In this document: positions 1-15,283 of the stretch, in pieces
Layout of the letters: the number at the start of each line of letters is the position of its first letter
Position numbering within the stretch: the stretch's first letter is position 1
Source of the DNA: Escherichia phage I29
Length of the DNA: 64,000 nucleotides
Sequence record: ON286975
Reading direction: 5' to 3' (one strand)
Position numbers and translations under genes: made by a program
The notes under the pieces: generated by a model
The model's input: only the letters and a program-made list of their open reading frames with translations
Told to the model about the DNA's origin: nothing
Database searches by the model: none

Positions 1-373
1 GCTCCCACGATACCAGATCTCCATACGAGGAAATAGGATTACCGTCGATGAGTATGTCCTCTATACCTTCCAGAGGATGATTAGCAAGAACAATGGCACA
101 ATGGAGGGTTCTGTCTCTGTCCTGCTCCAAAAACGCAAGCAGTCCAGACGTGCGTGTCTTCCCATACACTACAGAGCAGGGTGCAGCAGAAGATCTGAGA
201 AGCTTTTGTCTATCTTGCTGACTTCTGTAAGATTTGTTGCCCTCAAAAATCTTATCCAGAGTTCTGGTGGTAACAGTGTTCAGGCTGTCAGCCAGAGCTG
301 CCTTGGATGCGTTCCAGTCATAACTTGAAGATCTTGCAGAAGCAACGATGTTATCAATCATTGCAATTGGCAT
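1..373 (-). CDS. hypothetical protein, 3'-truncated by window edge
   Basis: Own translation of minus strand: ATG at 373..371 overlaps the TAA of the upstream gene; frame stays open for 124 codons (MPIAMIDNIVASARSS...GNPISSYGDLVSWE) to the window edge. Absent from ORF track because there is no stop inside the window. Confidence 0.4.
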   Translation of the reverse strand, partial: MPIAMIDNIVASARSSSYDWNASKAALADSLNTVTTRTLDKIFEGNKSYRSQQDRQKLLRSSAAPCSVVYGKTRTSGLLAFLEQDRDRTLHCAIVLANHPLEGIEDILIDGNPISSYGDLVSWE

Positions 374-798
374 TAATACCTCCAGACATCAACAACGATA
401 GAATCTTTCATGTCGAACATAAAGACCCCTTTATCACCTTTCGCCCAAATCTGGTTGTTCCAGAACACACCAGCGGTGAGCCCGTTCAGACCTTCGAAGA
501 TAACAATATCGCCACGCTGAACCTGTTTAGGAGTATCTAGTCGAGTCATAAAGAGATCAAAAATAGTAGGCAGGTGTGTGGTTTTGAAACGGAGCATGCA
601 CCATCTTTTGCTTTCCAACTCTGTTTTATACGTTCCTTCGAAGTTAGAAAGAAAATCTGTTCCGTATTGGGCATCAACACACTTAGCTGCAAAGGTGCAG
701 CAATCGTGGAATCCCCATTCAAAAGGTATGGTGGCCTCTTCGTCAAACACTCTCCACAATCTTTCTTGCCAATCCACTAAACGAGGGTGTGTGCTCAT
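373..798 (-). CDS. NlpC/P60-like cysteine peptidase domain protein (lambda gpK C-terminal-like), putative tail-associated
   Basis: ORF track 373..810; ATG at 798 overlaps upstream stop (TAATG), whereas the track start at 810 is TTG. Motifs HDCCTFA ... GDIVIFEG ... TAGVFW match the Cys/His pattern of NlpC/P60 peptidases. Confidence 0.45.
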   Translation of the reverse strand: MSTHPRLVDWQERLWRVFDEEATIPFEWGFHDCCTFAAKCVDAQYGTDFLSNFEGTYKTELESKRWCMLRFKTTHLPTIFDLFMTRLDTPKQVQRGDIVIFEGLNGLTAGVFWNNQIWAKGDKGVFMFDMKDSIVVDVWRY

Positions 799-1349
799 TA
801 AACCTCCCAAATGATCGGGCGGCTCGCCACCTGATCCACATATTTAAAAAATCTGTCATTATCGTTTCTTGAGCTGTGGCTTTCCTCCGTGTACCGATAA
901 GGAAAACCTCTTAACCAGCTGTTGAAGATGGAAGAGATGGATATGGACAAAGCACTATTCTCACCTGTCTGAATAGCCATATCTGTTATAAGTCCGTCAA
1001 ACAAGCCATTAGTTGTAACAGGTAGACCATTCTCCATAGCGGTAATGTACAACGTGGCACGACAACCAGAATACTCCGTCTTCAGCAGATCACCCACATA
1101 CTTGGGATCAAACCCGTTTAATGTTGCTACCACAGATCCGAAGTTGGTGGCATCTTTCTCAGACACAGCAGTTAATGTTGCTGATCCACCTATCCCTATA
1201 AAATGTTGCCCCTCAATTACTACAACACCAGTGCCTGAGCACACTCTGACAGTTCCTGTCGGTAGCTCCAGCTTTGCAGCAATTAAGATCTCAACACCAT
1301 CAAGCTCCAGCTTTTCAAGAAATAAATTATCTAATGGCGCTCTGATCAT
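798..1349 (-). CDS. hypothetical tail-region protein
   Basis: ORF track 798..1364; first ATG at 1349 sits 1 nt after upstream TAA (track start is TTG). Co-oriented and tightly packed with tail genes. Confidence 0.45.
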   Translation of the reverse strand: MIRAPLDNLFLEKLELDGVEILIAAKLELPTGTVRVCSGTGVVVIEGQHFIGIGGSATLTAVSEKDATNFGSVVATLNGFDPKYVGDLLKTEYSGCRATLYITAMENGLPVTTNGLFDGLITDMAIQTGENSALSISISSIFNSWLRGFPYRYTEESHSSRNDNDRFFKYVDQVASRPIIWEV

Positions 1350-1350
1350 C

Positions 1351-1941
1351 TTAAAAATCCTCAAAGAAGTTGATAACTATATTATCACCTTTTTGCATAG
1401 CATCGACTTTTTGCTTAATTTTATAAATATCTCTGATATGAAACCTACCCTTCGGAGATTGAGTTATTATCTTCATGGTGTCCCCTGCGGCAATAGGTTT
1501 TCTAAGTCTTGGAGATATGCCTATAACAGCAGACCCAACACCATCACTACGCACTGGAGCTGTTACCACTTTCAACTCATCGTTCACAGATATTTTATCA
1601 CCAGCTCTGGCTATGTCTCTGTTTGGCTCCCACCCGACCGTCTTCAAAAAATCGTCGTTACCAGTAGGCCCAAGGGCGATTGGCTCGTTAGCTGTTACAG
1701 AGTGACCGTAAGTTTTAATAAGAAAGATGTTCCCATCTTTATACACCTGATCAACAAAGCTCTTAAGCTCTAGCAACTGTGACTCGCTGATATTGGAGAC
1801 CGTCAAAGTGCCTTTCCAGTTAGGTGTGGCATAGGTTACTTTTTGCGTTTTACCTGTAAACGGACTTTTAAACGTAACAATATCTGCCAGCAGCTCCAAT
1901 CTAATATCTGGAAGGTATCTAGGCCTTTCCCATAAAAACAT
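1351..1941 (-). CDS. hypothetical tail-region protein
   Basis: 196-aa ORF; ATG at 1941 preceded by GGAGG RBS on the minus strand. Confidence 0.5.
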   Translation of the reverse strand: MFLWERPRYLPDIRLELLADIVTFKSPFTGKTQKVTYATPNWKGTLTVSNISESQLLELKSFVDQVYKDGNIFLIKTYGHSVTANEPIALGPTGNDDFLKTVGWEPNRDIARAGDKISVNDELKVVTAPVRSDGVGSAVIGISPRLRKPIAAGDTMKIITQSPKGRFHIRDIYKIKQKVDAMQKGDNIVINFFEDF

Positions 1942-2002
1942 TGTGCCTCCAGGTTAAACAATCATGATAGTTATTTTACCAGATTTTGAGTTAATACGCA
2001 AT

Positions 2003-2033
2003 ACAAACAAAAAGCCCCCGCCGAAGCGAGGGC
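2003..2033 (-). terminator. intrinsic terminator downstream of long tail fiber gene
   Basis: Minus-strand reading GCCCTCGC-TTCG-GCGGGGGC (8-bp stem, one GU pair) followed by TTTTTGTTTGT. Confidence 0.65.
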
Positions 2034-2040
2034 AAAACAG

Positions 2041-5000
2041 TTACTTCAGTTTCTCTTGCAACCCAGTAACAACCTCTGTCAATTTTTTAACCTGCTCCTC
2101 AAGGGCGGTTATTTTATCGTCCTGTTCCCTGCAAACCTGGACAAGCAAGCCTGTTACAGCTGCATAGTCAACGTTATAGAATCTTTCCTCAGTCATCAGA
2201 GGGGTGCCGTCTTGAGTAGGCCCTGGAACCTCTTTCCTTTGCACGAAAGACCCAACCGCTTCTGGTAATGCTTCCATAACTTCTTGAGCAATTACCCCTG
2301 CGTAAGGCATACCATTCTCTTTTAAAGTATAGGTATAGCCTTTCATCTTCCGGATAGCTTCTACAGCGTTAGGTATGACCTCGATATTATCCTTCAGGTC
2401 ACGGTCAGAACTTTGACTAACAGTGGTGCATTCTACTGCACCATTGACAGCAAAATATCTTGATTTGGCCTCATCTGTCTTGGCCCCGCAATGGAATACC
2501 CAGTTGGAGAGTGTTGAGTTATCACTTATCTGGAACTCAAGCACATTCTTCCGGTCTGCACCATTGCCCCAATAATATAACCTACCTGTATTAGCAGGTA
2601 TGTTGGAACTGTTGCCAACAGTAGCTCCGCCGCCAGTGTGGATTATAAACTCTGGGTCAAGATTCGAACCTTGAGTTTTCAAAGTGATCCCTTTGCCACC
2701 AAGCTGCTGCCAAGGTCCCCATGTGAAAACACTACCTATTGTTGTTCCATAACGCAGGAATTTTTCCCCAAGATATGATACATATTCCTGCACACAGCTC
2801 TCAGGCACGTTGGCGTAATTCCTGTACACAATAAGTGTACCTGCCTGAGCACAAGGGTAGTTTCTCTCCGGAGTGGCCTGAGCATTGGCCTCTTGGTGAT
2901 AAAAACCCTCTCTATCCCCTTTGTAGTCGTTAAGGTCATTAGTTCCCAACCCTTGACCACGGTGCTGAATAACTTTGTTCCACGCTCTGTGGTTTCCCTG
3001 CTCTATGGAACGAGTGTACAGCTGGTCTAAACGACCTGCCATCTGGAAAGCGTAGTTTCCAGAAAAACCAACCGACAACCCTGCTACAACCATGGAACCT
3101 TCAGGTCCGTTGACGTTACCAGCCATTATTTTAGAAGGGTTGTTATTTCCGAACTGGTTGTTCCAGTCTGCACCTGTGTGGCATACAAAACCACCAGGAG
3201 CTGAGAAAGTGCCATCTTTGTTGAAGTTGTAGAATTTGTGAGCAGAACCTACAACATCACGAACAATAACTTGACCAGCCTCTGGAGTAGATCTGAACTC
3301 TGCCTGTCCTTTGAGACCAGCACCATTACCGCATTTAGAGGTAAACGTACCGTTAGTCAGATCCTCTGTCCCATCTGATGCACACTGGAAGCCTGCATTA
3401 GAGAATAACGCCTTTCTAGGACTGCCGTAGCACAAATAGTTAAGACCGTCTGCCCATAGCTCGACTTTTGGCATATTCATTTTGCTCATCACAGCATAGC
3501 GTTCAGCAGTGCCTATATAGTGCCACTGTGTGCCGCCACCAGTGTAGAACCCTGAAGTCCCTTTGAAGTCAACAATAGGTCTGGTGTTGGTATTATTATC
3601 TCCAAGAACAGCAAGATTCAAATCTGCTGACTGGAGAGGTGCAACGAACTTAACACCGTCCTGATTGTCTGTTACAGAGCCAACCTGGTAATCTTGCTCC
3701 CTGGTAAACACCTCGACAACATTTCTACTTGCGTATATGCTGACAGGGAAAGCACGCGCCTCTGCATAGAAAGCAACATATTCTTGTTTACCCCTTGTTG
3801 GAGCAACCATCCCAAGAAGTGCTTTTTCATTCTGGTAGAAATTTACTACCCCGTAGAAAGAGTCTCCTCTGTCTGTCCAACCACCAGTTCTATAGTGACA
3901 CTGTAAGGTCGCACAGTTCATAGGGTCATTTCCAGATGAAGACCTGGTGACTATAGTAATATCTGTACCTGTCGAAGGGGCGTAATACGGATCTGTTCTA
4001 ACGATGATTGGGTAGTATTTCCCATCTTCCATCCCTGCGGTTCTTGGCAGTGTTAAGAAGTCTTTTACACCTGCTGCTATAGGAACTTTGAACAGATTCT
4101 GAGCATCTGCTAAAGTTGTAGCCCCAGTGCCACCTGCGGCTTGAGGTAGAGGTTCCCACTTGGCCTTCCGGTTGTTATAAACACCCCATTCAAGCGTTCC
4201 TTCACCTTGCTCGTCCATACCGCCATCCCAGACAACCATCTTGGCGGCTTTCTTGGACCCCCAGAAGCCTCTTTCTGCCCCTGAACTACGGATCCACTCT
4301 CCAAGTCCCCAGTTTGCCAGCTGACCGTTCAGATCACCAACCTGCATATATTTAGGACAATCTAAGACCCCATCCTCACGGAAGCCTAAATAGCTATGAG
4401 TTTCAGATCCTTTTGCGCCTTTGTGCAGGTGGATTGTCAACCAAGCCTTATTGTCGTTTCTTACCTCAGAGTAGATCCTATACCCATGCTCAAGGACACC
4501 GTCAGCGCCGTATTTATCCCCATGGAGAATACCTGATGGAGACTTAACCTCAGAAGTGCTTTGAGATAGGTAAAGGTGCCCGAAGGTAGGGGTATTTCTA
4601 GACCCGAGACCGATGTGCGATCTAAAGGTATCATCGTTACGAGGTCTGACCATCGGCTGCCATGCAGTCCACTGATTTGTGTTGGCCTGATAGGTTCTCA
4701 AATACCAAACATCTACGTTAGAGAATGGATAGTATTCCTGACGACAACCTGTACCGCCGTTAGCATTGTTCTGCCAGACAATCAAGTGACCAGCACCAGA
4801 ACCTGCAGGGTAACCATTTGCCTCAGTTGCATAAGCAGTCATCGGCTGGTAGTATACACCATCCTGATTACCAGTCAAGTTATTGATATTGAAATTTGGC
4901 TCAAGGGCTGCACGTTGCTTATAGAAAGCACCGATATTGATACGGACTCCAGCGGCATCTCTAGCCCCTGTGCCGCCTTGCTCTATAGCAAGAGGTTGCC

Positions 5001-5841
5001 ACGAAGCTGTTTGTTGGTTCCACATACCCCAACGGCCTGTTGCATCAAGCTGCAAGTACCCTGCCGTATTTAAATCATCTCCAGCACGGATAACTGTTCT
5101 TGTTGGGTTGTTTGCCTCTAGGCGTTTAAATTCATCACGAAGTGCTATTCTTTTCGTTGTTGCTACACCGTTGGTTACTGCAATGGTGTACATGGCTCCG
5201 GTGGTAGCGCCACGGAAAATACCATCAACAGTTGTAGTATCACGACGAGATACCACACCGTTCAGAAATTTTTCACCAGCTGCTACAGAAGGGTAGTTGG
5301 TAGTTCTTCCCTCTTCAATAACTGCAGGGCCAACAAAGTTATCAAGGTGAATAACATCGCCTACAGTGTGCACTGTACCAAAATCTACACGCTGTGCAAG
5401 TGCTTTGGCATCGTTAGCTGTCTGAACAGTAACATCCATTACATCCTGGACAGACTGCCCTTCGGCTGTCATGATCATAGATGCGCCAATGGTAGATTCC
5501 AGCTCCTCCCTTAAGGACGGGTCAGTATATACCATCCATGCAGCATCAGTGATCCCACCATCGGAGTACGGTGAAGACAGTGCAGGAACAGTGTGCGGAA
5601 ATTCGCCTTTCCAACGTAGGTAGAGGTCTTCCTCTTCGAAGTAGGCAAAATCCATTGGGCCGTTTAACTTACCACCTTCCTTAAAGGAGATTACATGAGA
5701 AACAGTCCCATCAACATGGACAACATCGCCAATTTTTACACGACGGGTCAGGTCTGGTTGTTGAACAACCAGGTAATCATCCTCTGTCACTGCGGTAGTG
5801 GCAGGAAGAGATTCAATTCTGACAACTTTAATATCAGCCAT
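2041..5841 (-). CDS. long tail fiber / receptor-binding protein with C-terminal intramolecular chaperone domain
   Basis: 1266 aa; AGGAG RBS before ATG at 5841. N-terminal ~100 aa paralogous to the 8477..9145 product. C-terminal ~120 aa contains SDRDLKDNIEVIP...KMKGYTY, matching the conserved Ser-Asp-x-x-Leu-Lys autoproteolytic chaperone motif of tail fibers and tailspikes. Confidence 0.8.
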   Translation of the reverse strand: MADIKVVRIESLPATTAVTEDDYLVVQQPDLTRRVKIGDVVHVDGTVSHVISFKEGGKLNGPMDFAYFEEEDLYLRWKGEFPHTVPALSSPYSDGGITDAAWMVYTDPSLREELESTIGASMIMTAEGQSVQDVMDVTVQTANDAKALAQRVDFGTVHTVGDVIHLDNFVGPAVIEEGRTTNYPSVAAGEKFLNGVVSRRDTTTVDGIFRGATTGAMYTIAVTNGVATTKRIALRDEFKRLEANNPTRTVIRAGDDLNTAGYLQLDATGRWGMWNQQTASWQPLAIEQGGTGARDAAGVRINIGAFYKQRAALEPNFNINNLTGNQDGVYYQPMTAYATEANGYPAGSGAGHLIVWQNNANGGTGCRQEYYPFSNVDVWYLRTYQANTNQWTAWQPMVRPRNDDTFRSHIGLGSRNTPTFGHLYLSQSTSEVKSPSGILHGDKYGADGVLEHGYRIYSEVRNDNKAWLTIHLHKGAKGSETHSYLGFREDGVLDCPKYMQVGDLNGQLANWGLGEWIRSSGAERGFWGSKKAAKMVVWDGGMDEQGEGTLEWGVYNNRKAKWEPLPQAAGGTGATTLADAQNLFKVPIAAGVKDFLTLPRTAGMEDGKYYPIIVRTDPYYAPSTGTDITIVTRSSSGNDPMNCATLQCHYRTGGWTDRGDSFYGVVNFYQNEKALLGMVAPTRGKQEYVAFYAEARAFPVSIYASRNVVEVFTREQDYQVGSVTDNQDGVKFVAPLQSADLNLAVLGDNNTNTRPIVDFKGTSGFYTGGGTQWHYIGTAERYAVMSKMNMPKVELWADGLNYLCYGSPRKALFSNAGFQCASDGTEDLTNGTFTSKCGNGAGLKGQAEFRSTPEAGQVIVRDVVGSAHKFYNFNKDGTFSAPGGFVCHTGADWNNQFGNNNPSKIMAGNVNGPEGSMVVAGLSVGFSGNYAFQMAGRLDQLYTRSIEQGNHRAWNKVIQHRGQGLGTNDLNDYKGDREGFYHQEANAQATPERNYPCAQAGTLIVYRNYANVPESCVQEYVSYLGEKFLRYGTTIGSVFTWGPWQQLGGKGITLKTQGSNLDPEFIIHTGGGATVGNSSNIPANTGRLYYWGNGADRKNVLEFQISDNSTLSNWVFHCGAKTDEAKSRYFAVNGAVECTTVSQSSDRDLKDNIEVIPNAVEAIRKMKGYTYTLKENGMPYAGVIAQEVMEALPEAVGSFVQRKEVPGPTQDGTPLMTEERFYNVDYAAVTGLLVQVCREQDDKITALEEQVKKLTEVVTGLQEKLK

Positions 5842-5877
5842 TCTTTCTCCTGAAAGGGGGCAAACAGCCCCCCTATG

Positions 5878-8475
5878 TTAAAGGTACAATCCACGGTATT
5901 GAGCATAAAGGCCCAGACCGCGAAGGATTTCGCCAGAGTGATAGCCAACCGGATCAGAAACTGCCCAGCAGCCGTTTAAAATATTATCCCCATTAATGAA
6001 GTGGTGCTTTTGCAGTAGCTTCACACAGGCTTCCACAACAATATCTATTTGAGGTATTGTCTCTGAATACCCGCACAGACCTAGCCAGCAGCAACCTGCA
6101 AGCCATTCACCTACCACCCACATCCTGTCTCCTCTGTCCTGATAAGAATATCCCCCAGAGGTGTTAAAGTCTGTAGGCAGATTTCCTGAATGAGATGACT
6201 GGAATCTGTTGAGGAACCATGCCCATTTCTGGCAGAACAGGAATAGTCTTTCATCAACAGGTTCTTTATGTTTCTTGAGCTCATATATTGTGCGGCACGC
6301 AGCAACAAAAGATCTTGACTGGAGCTTAGAGTTATCTACCATCTCCCACCAACCAGTCAACCCTTCATTACCTCTTTGCCATACATAACGTGAGGCAACT
6401 GGACCCTCTGTCTTAAATGTATTATTATACCAGACTTGAGCGTCATACAGAAAGCCTATTGTATTTGACAATCTATGGCGATCTATGTTTTCTGCACCCA
6501 TGCAGTAGACTGCTGGGTATTGCATGCCAGGGTAGGGCCAATTTGGCCTTTCCTCTAAGAGATAGTTTTCCTTATCTATCACCTTTCCGGCAGGGAACAC
6601 ACCTGGTGTGTGCCTGTATGCACCTTGCTTGTAGTTTCTGACATAGCAATCACCAACCTTGGCGGTTGATTCTGTCTTGCTTGCCATCCATACGCTAAAC
6701 CAGATTAGATAAGCATCCCTATCTGCAATATAGAATTGCGGCAGTGTGTTGACGCAATATAGATCAAACAAGCCATTACCTATCTGCCTGTCGCTTAGGC
6801 TGAAATCTACAGAGGTGAGTCCCTTAGGATTAGCAAAGAAAGGTTTAATCTCTTCTTCAGTGTGATGAGGTTGTGTCGGATCTAGTTTGAAATCTCCTAG
6901 AGTAAGAGTTTCTGTTATCCATTGTCCATTAGTGGCATATAGATCAGCATACCATAACCACCTGTCTTTGTCAAGAAATTTGACCCTTACCATCTCATCA
7001 TCTGATCGATAAGTTACTGAGTTTAAAGAAATCTCTCTTCCAAAGTTGAAAGTTACTTTGCCTCTTGCTATATTACAACGGGTGAAGTTGTCAGAGTGGT
7101 TGTAAATGTCAGTATCGTACTGCATACTAACACTGGCACCACCGCTCACGGCAATGTTTTCCTCTTTAGGTAAGAGGTACGGATTACCGTCTTTACCAAC
7201 TACCTCTACGAAATCAGTAACCTTGGCAACTATTTCTGTTACCTCTGCCCCTCCAAAAGGAACCCCTATCCTGTACTGTTTTTTGTTATTGTTGCCATCA
7301 TTAAGGATGAAATGTGGCTGGAACAGAACCCCTTCTCCTCCGAAATTCATAACAATTTCAGCATCTCTGCCTATTTTGTATGTAGTCCCTTTTTGAATTA
7401 TTTCGCAAGGCTGGCGTGCGTTCATTCTAAAATTGATATACCCGTCACTGTCTCTGCTCATGACAGGAACTGTTCCTGCAACAAGACAAGTACCGTCTGT
7501 AAACGGTGCCTTAATCAACGTGGTCTTTCTAAACAACTTGTCGTAGGCGTTTATATCACTGAAATTAAGCAACTTGTTGTAAGACTGTTTAAACGCGGTG
7601 TAATACTTTTCCTCACCTGTCAAGGTGTAGAGTTGATAACAAGCGTCACACCACATTTCTTCCCCGTCCAACTCTGGGGCCTGATTATCTGCAACCACGT
7701 TTATAGGATTTACAATTACAGGGGATCCAGCAGGTATCACCGATCCACCCTGCTCTTGAGGTAATCTTACACAATAGGTCACCTTGTGGCTTCCTGTAAC
7801 ACCCTTATCTTGTAATTGGATTGTGCCGAACTCTATAGACGTATGCCCACTGTCGGCTATGCTCCCGTTAGCCCAATAGCGGTTACCATCCCATGCTATG
7901 TACCACTCAACCCACCAACTTAATCCTGATGTTGTCCAATCTGGGTTAGCATCTGTGCCACCGTAAACATCAGAGTCTACAGTGTTTCTTCCTAACACAC
8001 CGTTATACGCTTGGAATGCCTTGTCCAGGTATTCCCCCCATGTCGGAGATCCAGCTGGGATTTTTCCTCTACCGTTGGTAAAAGACACTACCACATCTTT
8101 AAACCCACCGTGTGATGGAACCCCATCTGTGGATAGAGGGTAGTGGGACAATCTTTGCATTTTACTTTCTACGGCATATGCACCCAGAAGATGACTATTG
8201 TAAGCTTCCCAAGCATCTTTTGCCCTATCCAGATAGAAATCGCTTTTCGATGCCCTGTATGCTTCAATGTATCCCAGAATCAACACAGCTTGGGACTCAT
8301 GCATTGCCCAATCGTTATTTATCTTATTACCTGCCCACCCTGCAGCTATAAGACCATCAGGGTTTACTAGCTTATTTTGTGTAGGTGTGTTGGTAATACC
8401 TGTGTTGTTATCGAGGCACTTCCTGTGCCCCTCAATCATCTGAAATACGTTATCAATGTTGTGTTGAATACGCAT
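5878..8475 (-). CDS. putative tailspike-like protein, possible glycan-degrading enzyme
   Basis: 865-aa ORF between two fiber genes; its ATG lies 1 nt after the TAA of the upstream 222-aa anchor-domain protein. No anchor domain of its own. Enzymatic assignment is inference only. Confidence 0.45.
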   Translation of the reverse strand: MRIQHNIDNVFQMIEGHRKCLDNNTGITNTPTQNKLVNPDGLIAAGWAGNKINNDWAMHESQAVLILGYIEAYRASKSDFYLDRAKDAWEAYNSHLLGAYAVESKMQRLSHYPLSTDGVPSHGGFKDVVVSFTNGRGKIPAGSPTWGEYLDKAFQAYNGVLGRNTVDSDVYGGTDANPDWTTSGLSWWVEWYIAWDGNRYWANGSIADSGHTSIEFGTIQLQDKGVTGSHKVTYCVRLPQEQGGSVIPAGSPVIVNPINVVADNQAPELDGEEMWCDACYQLYTLTGEEKYYTAFKQSYNKLLNFSDINAYDKLFRKTTLIKAPFTDGTCLVAGTVPVMSRDSDGYINFRMNARQPCEIIQKGTTYKIGRDAEIVMNFGGEGVLFQPHFILNDGNNNKKQYRIGVPFGGAEVTEIVAKVTDFVEVVGKDGNPYLLPKEENIAVSGGASVSMQYDTDIYNHSDNFTRCNIARGKVTFNFGREISLNSVTYRSDDEMVRVKFLDKDRWLWYADLYATNGQWITETLTLGDFKLDPTQPHHTEEEIKPFFANPKGLTSVDFSLSDRQIGNGLFDLYCVNTLPQFYIADRDAYLIWFSVWMASKTESTAKVGDCYVRNYKQGAYRHTPGVFPAGKVIDKENYLLEERPNWPYPGMQYPAVYCMGAENIDRHRLSNTIGFLYDAQVWYNNTFKTEGPVASRYVWQRGNEGLTGWWEMVDNSKLQSRSFVAACRTIYELKKHKEPVDERLFLFCQKWAWFLNRFQSSHSGNLPTDFNTSGGYSYQDRGDRMWVVGEWLAGCCWLGLCGYSETIPQIDIVVEACVKLLQKHHFINGDNILNGCWAVSDPVGYHSGEILRGLGLYAQYRGLYL

Positions 8476-8476
8476 C

Positions 8477-9145
8477 TTAGATAGCTCCTGCGATAATCAA
8501 TGCCCCGTACCAAGTTAACCCGTTGTCGTAGGTTTCCAACTTGAAAATGTCTGTTGCACCAGCTGTAAATGTTAGGATAGGATCTCTTCCGTAGGACCAT
8601 TTAACATTACCAGGCCAATAGACTTTGTTGCCGCCAGAGGTCTGAGTAATGCATACGGTTATAGTTCTCGCCACCCCTTCAAGACCTTCTGTTTGATTTT
8701 CAAAAGAGATTGTGGTATTTGAAGTTAGTCGAACCTTAAAGGTATCCGCAACTTCAAGATCCATATCAAGCTGACCACCGATAGATCCGTAATCAACTAT
8801 TCTGCCAGAAGAAGTTGCAGCAAGCTCACCAAAAACAGACCAGGCGTTTGCAGACACACCCCCAGCACCCTCTACAGTGGAGTCTGGGAGGATTATTTTA
8901 GGATAATCCCCGTTCCACGTGTAGTAGCGCTTAGTTTCTGGATCATAAGCAAAGTCCTTCTTGCTCTTAAGATAACCACCCTCTGTGAAATAGACTATCT
9001 TAGTAATGCTAAGATCGTTGACAACATCGTCAATCTTAGCCTTTCTTGTCCCATCAGTCTGGTTGACAACCAAGAAGTCATCACTCAGGACTGTTTCTGC
9101 ATCTTCAAGATCTGGAATTGGTATTGTAGGATAAGCTACAGCCAT
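8477..9145 (-). CDS. short tail fiber / adaptor protein with conserved N-terminal anchor domain
   Basis: 222 aa; N-terminus (DDFLVVNQTDGTRKAKIDDVV ... FTEGGYLKSKKDFAY ... WNGDYP) aligns with the N-terminus of the 1266-aa fiber. Confidence 0.55.
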   Translation of the reverse strand: MAVAYPTIPIPDLEDAETVLSDDFLVVNQTDGTRKAKIDDVVNDLSITKIVYFTEGGYLKSKKDFAYDPETKRYYTWNGDYPKIILPDSTVEGAGGVSANAWSVFGELAATSSGRIVDYGSIGGQLDMDLEVADTFKVRLTSNTTISFENQTEGLEGVARTITVCITQTSGGNKVYWPGNVKWSYGRDPILTFTAGATDIFKLETYDNGLTWYGALIIAGAI

Positions 9146-12946: not shown

Positions 12947-15283
12947 TTACCAAAGGTCGGTAGACATGAAGTTGATATCTTTATTGTTCTCCCACTCAAG
13001 TTTTGCATCAAATATTTTGTTAAACTCACCCTCATCTATTGAAATCGTGATTTTCCCATCACTGATCTCTAAAGGTAGCATTTCCATAGTTCTTAATTGA
13101 GAAGCAAAACCAGGGCCACCCGGCAACGGAAGAGTCCCGCCCGGTAAGGTGTCCAAAGGATTAACAAACCCGTTACCTCCCGATATGATATCTTTGCGAA
13201 TCATATCGCTGATAGTGTCCAGCTGCTGATTTCTTTCACTTAGTGGGTTGTAACGGTCATTAAATAATTCCCCGGCGCTTAGTATTGTACCGATAATGCC
13301 CAGCTTACCGAGCAGACCAACTTTGCCACCAGGTGTCTTGAGGCCACCCCCACCTTTTCCTGCCGGAGCTCCACCACCAGATCCTTCTGTAGTAGCGGCA
13401 CCCGCTGCTCCGGCTGCACCCCTTAGAGAGTTAAGGAATTTAAAGGTTTTTACAAGCATGGATGCCATGACAAAACCTTTTGTTAGGGCATTGACTACCA
13501 GCATGATGGCAGCAGCAAACCCTGCCCATTTAGCATAGCTAAAGGTGTCATGAAGCTCTTCAGAATATTCCTTCGTCTTAGCTGTTATGAATCCCCATTT
13601 AATCCCCCATTCAAGGAAAAACATGCGGATCTTGACTATGGTGTTGTTTAGTTCACCAACTACCCAGTTAAGGCCTCTCACAAACCCGCTAACAAAATCA
13701 CCAGAGGCATCCCACACAAATTGCAGAGTCTCACCAGTGCGGATTAGTGTATAATAGAACTCTGTTAGTTCGTCGGACCAACGGGTGAACAGTTTCTGAC
13801 GAGTCAGTTCGATGAAGGTTTTCAGTCTGTTTTCTGCCAGCACGTTAGACTTCTGCATTCTTTCATAACCAGCTGCAGATGCCTCGTTCATGTACTTAGC
13901 CACATACTTCATGATCTTGGCTGTTTTAACCTCACCTTTCTTCATCATGTCCATGAACTGATCCATGGAGAGTTCAGAAAGACCAAAAGCCTCTTTGGTG
14001 GCCTTGATAAAAGGTTCGTATGCACCGGGCAATGCTTCAGCAAGTTGTTGCTTCAGTTCTTCGGACATTACTTGTCCCTTGCCAAGCATCTGTTGGATAG
14101 CCATAATACCGCGCTGGTATTTTACCTCATCGGCACCATAAGCAGCAGCATACTGTGAGTATGCAGAAAACAGCTCATGCACTTCCTGATTTGTCATCTG
14201 GTTTTTGGCGTTTACCGACATCTGGGCGTAACCTTGAAGACCAGATTTGAGATCAAAACCAAGACGCATAGCCTCTTGCTGGACAAACGCAACCTCACTG
14301 TTGGCTTTGTTTGGATCTCCAGTAACAGCAGTAAGAGCAGCACTTGCCCCCTCCATCATGTGACCGGATCTGTTAACCGCAGCAAATCCAGAAAAAGCCG
14401 TATACGCAGCTGTTGCATTAATAACAGATCTACGTAAGTCTCTCATGGCATCGCCTAGTGTAAGCGTTTGGCTGGTGGCGCTTTTAAACCCAGACTGCAG
14501 CGCTGACAGGTGGGCGTTAAAGGTTGACTTCTTCATCTCCCCGCGAGCAAACCTGGACTCTAACTCTGAGTATCCTGGTAAGCTTCCACGGAATCCGGCC
14601 CCATACTTGGCAGAAAGTCTTATCGCGGAGTTGTAGAGGTGGGTTCTCCTTGCCTCACGATCCGACATAAGCTTATTATCCATACCAGCTTTACTGTCTC
14701 TTCTTAGCTGTCTATGATAACGATTCATAGCGGCTGTCTGAGCTTTCACAAGGTTAGGGTCGGAAGCCACACCACCCATATTAGGGTTACCGGGGATATA
14801 TTTGAAAGATTTGGCATTAGCCAAAACTCTTGCCTTAGGTGCCTTATAACCACCGTAAGACACTGGTGCAGATTTGGCAGCCTTTTTGGCCTCTTTAGCT
14901 TGCTGCTGGTAGAACTTACGCATCCTAGCCATTTCTGGATTTTTAGCGGTAAGATTACCTACAGCTTGTTTACGTCTCGCATTCTCCCTACGTTCTATTG
15001 CAGCCCTTACTGCAGCCTCTTTCTTGGCCTGTGCTACGCTCTCTCTGTGCAGTTTAGCATTTGCCTGAGATTGCTGTCTGGCAACCCGCTGCATTGTCTG
15101 CTGGGTTTTAACAGCTACCGCCTGCCATCTGCTCATGGGGTTGGCTGAGTTAAAATCTTCGCCCAGTTTCCTGAACTCCCTCCCAATACTGCGAATTTTC
15201 TCTACAGCTTTTTTGTAGGAGGAGTTCTCTATCTCAAAGCCAATCTTGTTGACTGTTGTGGCAACTATTTTGTTTGTAGCCAT
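12947..15283 (-). CDS. tail tape measure protein
   Basis: 778 aa, Ala/Gln/Lys-rich helical sequence with Gly-rich segment (GAAGAAGAATTEGSGGGAPAGKGGGGLKTPGG); located after the chaperone gene pair. Confidence 0.8.
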   Translation of the reverse strand: MATNKIVATTVNKIGFEIENSSYKKAVEKIRSIGREFRKLGEDFNSANPMSRWQAVAVKTQQTMQRVARQQSQANAKLHRESVAQAKKEAAVRAAIERRENARRKQAVGNLTAKNPEMARMRKFYQQQAKEAKKAAKSAPVSYGGYKAPKARVLANAKSFKYIPGNPNMGGVASDPNLVKAQTAAMNRYHRQLRRDSKAGMDNKLMSDREARRTHLYNSAIRLSAKYGAGFRGSLPGYSELESRFARGEMKKSTFNAHLSALQSGFKSATSQTLTLGDAMRDLRRSVINATAAYTAFSGFAAVNRSGHMMEGASAALTAVTGDPNKANSEVAFVQQEAMRLGFDLKSGLQGYAQMSVNAKNQMTNQEVHELFSAYSQYAAAYGADEVKYQRGIMAIQQMLGKGQVMSEELKQQLAEALPGAYEPFIKATKEAFGLSELSMDQFMDMMKKGEVKTAKIMKYVAKYMNEASAAGYERMQKSNVLAENRLKTFIELTRQKLFTRWSDELTEFYYTLIRTGETLQFVWDASGDFVSGFVRGLNWVVGELNNTIVKIRMFFLEWGIKWGFITAKTKEYSEELHDTFSYAKWAGFAAAIMLVVNALTKGFVMASMLVKTFKFLNSLRGAAGAAGAATTEGSGGGAPAGKGGGGLKTPGGKVGLLGKLGIIGTILSAGELFNDRYNPLSERNQQLDTISDMIRKDIISGGNGFVNPLDTLPGGTLPLPGGPGFASQLRTMEMLPLEISDGKITISIDEGEFNKIFDAKLEWENNKDINFMSTDLW

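Follow-up and report, generated by a model that had tools for sequence, protein, structure and literature searches.

The tail fibre protein of Escherichia phage I29 ends in a Peptidase_S74-type C-terminal intramolecular chaperone domain (CIMCD). With a length of 122 residues (1145–1266), it forms the extreme C terminus of a 1266-aa lateral tail fibre of the rV5 type. We identified it in a window of 64,000 nucleotides (record ON286975), the whole stretch of phage DNA analysed here; all coordinates refer to this window (Table 1). The identity of the domain, its catalytic residues, its fold, its C-terminal position and the variability pattern of the fibre were observed directly. Our overall explanation, to which we assign a probability of about 0.88, is that this S74-type CIMCD would support trimerization and templating of the fibre and would then remove itself through Ser1145 and Lys1150, leaving a mature chain that ends at Ser1144.

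The first-pass annotation had located an SDRDLKDNIEV motif in the last ~120 fibre residues, and its coordinates, strand, motif and length were all exact: translation of 2044–2409 on the minus strand yields 122 codons, with SDRDLKDNIEV first and the last sense codon at the end. It had also proposed a comparison with the Peptidase_S74 profile, and PF13884 matched with 52.4 bits, where the curated cutoff is 22 (E 6.6e-14). Ser1145 stands at position 1 of this profile. The codon of this predicted nucleophile lies at 2407–2409 and that of the predicted general base, Lys1150, at 2392–2394, both on the minus strand.

Searching with the last 186 fibre residues, we found 76 proteins at E ≤ 1e-5, nearly all of which carry a precomputed PF13884 assignment. 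Thirty-six of these homologues were aligned; Ser1145, Asp1146, Lys1150 and Ile1153 are present in every one of the 35 that cover the columns from Ser1145 to Ile1153, and position 1144 varies (S, G, H, T, Y and others). The invariant Ser and Lys next to a variable position 1144 fit a nucleophile and a base inside the domain, combined with an unconstrained P1 residue. The profile match, the conservation of Ser and Lys in homologues and a predicted fold like that of known intramolecular-chaperone (IMC) structures together uphold the earlier assignment to the self-cleaving type. We scanned the 64-kb window in six frames for SDxxxKxx[ILV] and obtained six matches, of which only SDRDLKDNI falls within a long fibre ORF at a distance of ~120 residues from its C terminus; the scan revealed no further S74-type candidate in a fibre context anywhere in the window. 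One of the matches, SDMIRKDII at 13210, is located mid-protein in a 778-aa ORF (12947–15283, minus strand), 87 residues from its C terminus, and is probably a chance match.

Table 1. Features of the I29 tail fibre gene and its surroundings, with window coordinates.
Feature	Position	Strand	Basis
Complete tail fibre gene, 1266 aa plus stop	2041..5841	−	ORF list
Tail_spike_N (TSP1/Gp66 type) N-terminal attachment domain, residues 46–103	5533..5706	−	Pfam PF18668, E 2.2e-10, 40.9 bits, cutoff 25
Hypervariable distal region of the mature fibre, residues 951–1144, ending at Ser1144	2410..2991	−	Sliding identity
Predicted scissile bond between Ser1144 and Ser1145, codons AGT, TCT	2407..2412	−	Read from sequence; analogy to S16, T5
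C-terminal intramolecular chaperone/autoprotease domain, residues 1145–1266, 13.6 kDa, pI 4.7	2044..2409	−	Translation, Pfam, homologue alignment, model, fold searches
Peptidase_S74 profile core, residues 1145–1196 (profile positions 1–57 of 58)	2254..2409	−	PF13884
Long beta-hairpin, residues 1196–1224	2170..2256	−	Model strands E116–125 and E135–144 of 186-aa query
C-terminal 40-residue helix, residues 1226–1265	2047..2166	−	Model helix H146–185, block-mean pLDDT 80–95
Terminator-like GC-rich hairpin and T-run, starting 8 nt after the fibre stop codon	2004..2033	−	Stem of 8 pairs (7 G-C) at 2033..2014

A PHROGs profile search placed the 1266-aa protein in the tail fibre class (phrog_6578, E 0, residues 1–969), with other PHROG fibre families spanning its C-terminal ~180 residues. 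The Tail_spike_N region, which gave PDB sequence matches to the N-terminal parts of tailspikes and fibres, is the virion-proximal fibre end. Many rV5-like myoviruses (Vequintavirus), among them Escherichia phages A6-1, HeinrichReichert (Bas58) and CM1, match the first 8.5 kb of the window at 95–97% nucleotide identity. Orthologues of the fibre are rV5 gp41, which was detected in virions by mass spectrometry (PMC3606486), CM1 orf40 and bas58_0027, a ‘lateral tail fiber protein’ that in Bas58 is flanked by another lateral fibre gene and by small tail and baseplate genes. We also observed an ~80-residue domain that is duplicated inside the fibre, at residues 318–397 (4651–4890) and 969–1047 (2700–2937) on the minus strand, with 33% identity (E 2e-11) and the motif Y.Q...A......YP...AG.LIV..N.AN....C.QEY...W..WQ. 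Neither copy matched a Pfam family, and the second falls inside the hypervariable distal region.

For the structure model we used a 186-aa query consisting of the last 186 fibre residues. Fold searches returned known intramolecular-chaperone structures as the best structural neighbours of the predicted fold, with 3GW6 among the top, and the model contains the elements that characterize the CIMCD fold, namely a small alpha/beta core, an extended beta-hairpin ‘tentacle’ and a C-terminal helix, which in this fold builds a trimeric coiled coil. Single-sequence and profile searches of the PDB did not reach 3GW6 or 4UW8, which were recovered by fold searches only. Judging from the model, the hairpin is probably the counterpart of the ‘tentacle’ described for T5 pb1 (PMC4690869) and would embrace the fibre tip before cleavage. 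The C-terminal helix probably forms a trimeric coiled coil that nucleates trimerization; a coiled coil was predicted for rV5 gp41 too (PMC3606486). The region preceding the Ser is not alignable by sequence to T5 or K1F, and no equivalents of their sensor Arg and Asp were mapped. In this family, an upstream Arg supplied by a neighbouring chain and an Asp provide the oxyanion hole and tie cleavage to a correctly folded trimer; Arg1128, the obvious candidate for this Arg in I29, varies among the homologues.

A mature tip that stops immediately ahead of the motif Ser, as the first-pass annotation had also claimed, agrees with the published cuts in T5 pb1 (PMC4690869) and S16 gp37 (PMC7917993), from which we infer the same for rV5-like phages. 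T5 pb1 is cut between Thr1263 and Ser1264, with Ser1264 leaving with the chaperone, as is likewise reported for the nucleophile Ser of K1F (PMC4690869); S16 gp37 is cut between two serines, DLNVS^SDRRIKK (PMC7917993). The context in the I29 fibre, TVSQS^SDRDLKD, resembles that of S16 and, taken with the loss of the Ser in T5 and K1F, indicates that the mature chain should end at Ser1144 (codon 2410–2412, minus strand). By analogy with these homologues, the I29 fibre would thus be cleaved at exactly this bond. The computed mass of the full-length protein is 138.6 kDa, compared with 125.0 kDa for a mature chain of 1144 aa and 13.6 kDa for the acidic fragment that would be released. The predicted tryptic peptide spanning the bond is YFAVNGAVECTTVSQSSDR, and the predicted semi-tryptic C-terminal peptide of the mature chain is YFAVNGAVECTTVSQS.

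Homologues further suggest a chaperone role for residues 1145–1266, for which we propose the following course. The C-terminal coiled-coil helix would bring three nascent chains into register, and the beta-hairpins would wrap the distal fibre and template its intertwined trimeric fold. Once this fold is correct, Lys1150, five residues downstream, would activate Ser1145 for attack on the Ser1144–Ser1145 peptide bond. Each chain would release its 13.6 kDa fragment, which would be absent from virions, and the mature 125.0 kDa fibre would end right after its most variable, presumably host-contacting part.

To place the cut site relative to allelic variation, we compared the fibre with four rV5-like alleles by identity in 50-residue windows. 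Residues 1–400 are 94–100% identical to all four. Windows in the range 951–1150 share 40–74% identity with typing phage 5 (rV5 type) and BP9, compared with 80–100% for most of the remaining fibre; further variable windows occur at residues 401–450 (76–84%) and, in BP9, also at 551–750. Within the chaperone domain (1151–1266), identity is back up to 88–100% among rV5-like alleles. The main hypervariable cassette thus runs right up to the predicted cut site, where a host-contacting end would be expected, and has a conserved module on its downstream side. In E. coli prophage homologues, similarity begins abruptly at SDRDLK; the upstream sequences are unrelated and the chaperone alone is shared. 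Sequence comparison suggests that the conserved chaperone domain could act as a flank for recombination when tips are exchanged. The last ~50 mature residues (~1095–1140, 2425–2560) carry the motif WGN..R..V.E...VNG, and in profile searches this segment matched the T4 gp34 shaft repeat (5NXF/4UXE/9X3R, E ~6e-4) and distal S16 gp37 (6f45_A). Given the gp34 match, the mature end looks like a shaft repeat, with no obvious globular head.

Other readings of these data can be weighed. That the SDRDLKDNIEV string matches only by coincidence and belongs to some unrelated C-terminal tail is vanishingly improbable: the motif is short, but nothing else favours this idea, and it is refuted by a profile match that extends over 52 residues, by the 76 homologues with their PF13884 assignments and by fold matches that are specific to IMC structures. 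It is also quite improbable, though less so, that the domain folds and trimerizes the fibre but stays uncleaved or partly cleaved, remaining as the distal end on the virion. We found no experimental cleavage data for Vequintavirus in the literature, including rV5 virion proteomics (PMC3606486), and the rV5 SDS–PAGE bands of 288, 174, 52, 26 and 9.7 kDa fit neither 125 nor 139 kDa (PMC3606486). However, both residues of the catalytic dyad, Ser and Lys, are invariant (35/35 homologues), and the characterized members with an intact dyad, K1F, T5 and S16, all self-cleave (PMC4690869, PMC7917993). When we mapped the eight gp41 virion peptides of rV5 Table S5 (PMC3606486), all fell within residues 434–1073 of the 1272-aa protein and none in the chaperone domain (residues 1151–1272); this table also lacks five tryptic peptides predicted from the IMC and one from the N terminus. 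With eight peptides only, the probability of missing the domain by chance without cleavage is ~0.45, so the peptide data agree with cleavage without being evidence for it.

Retention of the domain has to be distinguished from a reading in which the domain is cleaved but the exposed end docks another protein, either an adhesin or a component of the branched rV5 fibre set. In S16 gp37, IMC autocleavage exposes the docking surface for the gp38 adhesin (PMC7917993), and an exposed end therefore need not be a receptor-binding surface. S16 gp37 (6f45_A) is also the best sequence match among solved structures, including ~20 residues before the Ser, and which genes make which rV5 fibres is still unsettled (PMC8594841). 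Because the last ~50 mature residues recall a fibre shaft repeat more than a globular head, we keep docking open as a minor rival. It is nevertheless unlikely: there is no gp38-like adhesin gene in the immediate neighbourhood of the I29 fibre gene, and neither a gp38-like gene nor another adhesin is annotated in the Bas58 stretch examined around its fibre gene. Moreover, the strongest allelic variation lies within the fibre itself, directly before the cut site, as expected of host contact. The downstream 196-aa gene was considered as a gp38-like adhesin or fibre chaperone and rejected, since it encodes a Dit-like distal tail protein (phrog_1302). We give a similarly low chance to a combined arrangement, in which the Ser1144 end would be an S16-like dock for a non-adjacent component of the fibre set and the IMC would act in addition as the downstream homology arm for the swapping of tip cassettes between phages and E. 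coli prophages.

Beyond the fibre stop codon, the hairpin listed in Table 1 has the arms GCCCTCGC-TTCG-GCGGGGGC followed by the T-run TTTTTGTTTG, suggesting that transcription stops or is attenuated between the fibre gene and the downstream Dit-like gene. Further along, a 145-aa protein (373–810, minus strand) that is called ‘cell wall hydrolase protein’ in Bas58 has no matches other than Pfam DUF6950 (E 4e-33) and a PHROG without an assigned function, and the hydrolase label is thus unsupported by the Pfam and PHROG libraries. Among the 123 phage records that matched window positions 1–8500 in a megablast search, all at ≥80% nucleotide identity, 18 bear ‘Campylobacter phage’ names, 16 of them with the host Campylobacter jejuni. 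A Campylobacter host is implausible for Vequintavirus, and these records may reflect contamination or mislabelling.

The chaperone domain of the I29 fibre is correctly identified but already known, and it brings nothing biologically new. For rV5 gp41, annotation of the domain dates from 2013 (Table S3: ‘L-shaped tail fiber protein; PF13884.1 Peptidase_S74’), with an HHpred match to 3GW6 and a coiled coil described in the text of that paper (PMC3606486). The CM1 paper of 2019 reported HHpred matches of orf40 to the K1F chaperone, the T5 LTF and the S16 RBP, and the RBPseg fibre atlas of 2025 describes a self-cleaving peptidase S74 C-terminal domain in fibres of Markadamsvirinae, Vequintavirinae and Queuovirinae. 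With these three reports, the finding is an ordinary one. Its use is practical: receptor-binding models, host-range engineering and recombinant expression should be based on the mature fibre ending at Ser1144 (125.0 kDa), whose real distal end would then be formed by its 200 most variable residues. Expression constructs should retain the 122-residue domain, which the trimer probably requires in order to fold.

Several characterized systems are close to the I29 domain. The founding member of MEROPS/Pfam Peptidase_S74, the CIMCD of the K1F endosialidase endoNF (PDB 3GW6), shares with the I29 fibre the C-terminal position, the Ser...Lys(+5) dyad and the helix-bundle and tentacle architecture, but only ~11–14% structure-based identity and no sequence-level PDB match; the K1F domain serves the stalk of a tailspike that bears an enzymatic head, whereas the client in I29 is a long fibre. 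According to the T5 authors, T5 retains the residues that act in the mechanism put forward for K1F endoNF (PMC4690869). In the L-shaped tail fibre pb1 of T5 (PDB 4UW8/4UW7), Ser1264 and Lys1269 have the same spacing of five as Ser1145 and Lys1150. By contrast, the receptor-binding ‘bullet’ domain that precedes the T5 IMC has no detectable sequence similarity in the I29 fibre, onto which the T5 sensor residues Arg1250 and Asp1239 are not mappable. The gp12 appendage IMC of phi29/GA-1 (3GUD) is a further known system, gp12 being a podovirus appendage.

By sequence, the closest solved relative is the distal long tail fibre gp37 of S16 (PDB 6F45_A; E 9e-6 with a single sequence, 4e-14 with a profile), followed by the ICA domain of MyRF (PDB 7DC3), a eukaryotic membrane-bound transcription factor. 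The S^SD(R)xxK context is identical in S16 gp37 and the I29 fibre, each with a pair of adjacent serines at the cut, which is predicted in I29; S16, however, requires a separate gp38 adhesin docked on the cleaved end, and no gp38-like gene lies beside the I29 fibre gene. Finally, rV5 gp41 (1272 aa) and orf40 (1266 aa) of Shigella/Escherichia phage CM1 are the same gene at the same locus as the I29 fibre. Across window positions 1–8500, identity to the CM1 genome is 95.6%. The rV5-type allele differs from the I29 fibre by six residues in length and is 40–66% identical to it in residues 951–1150, compared with 88–100% in the IMC.
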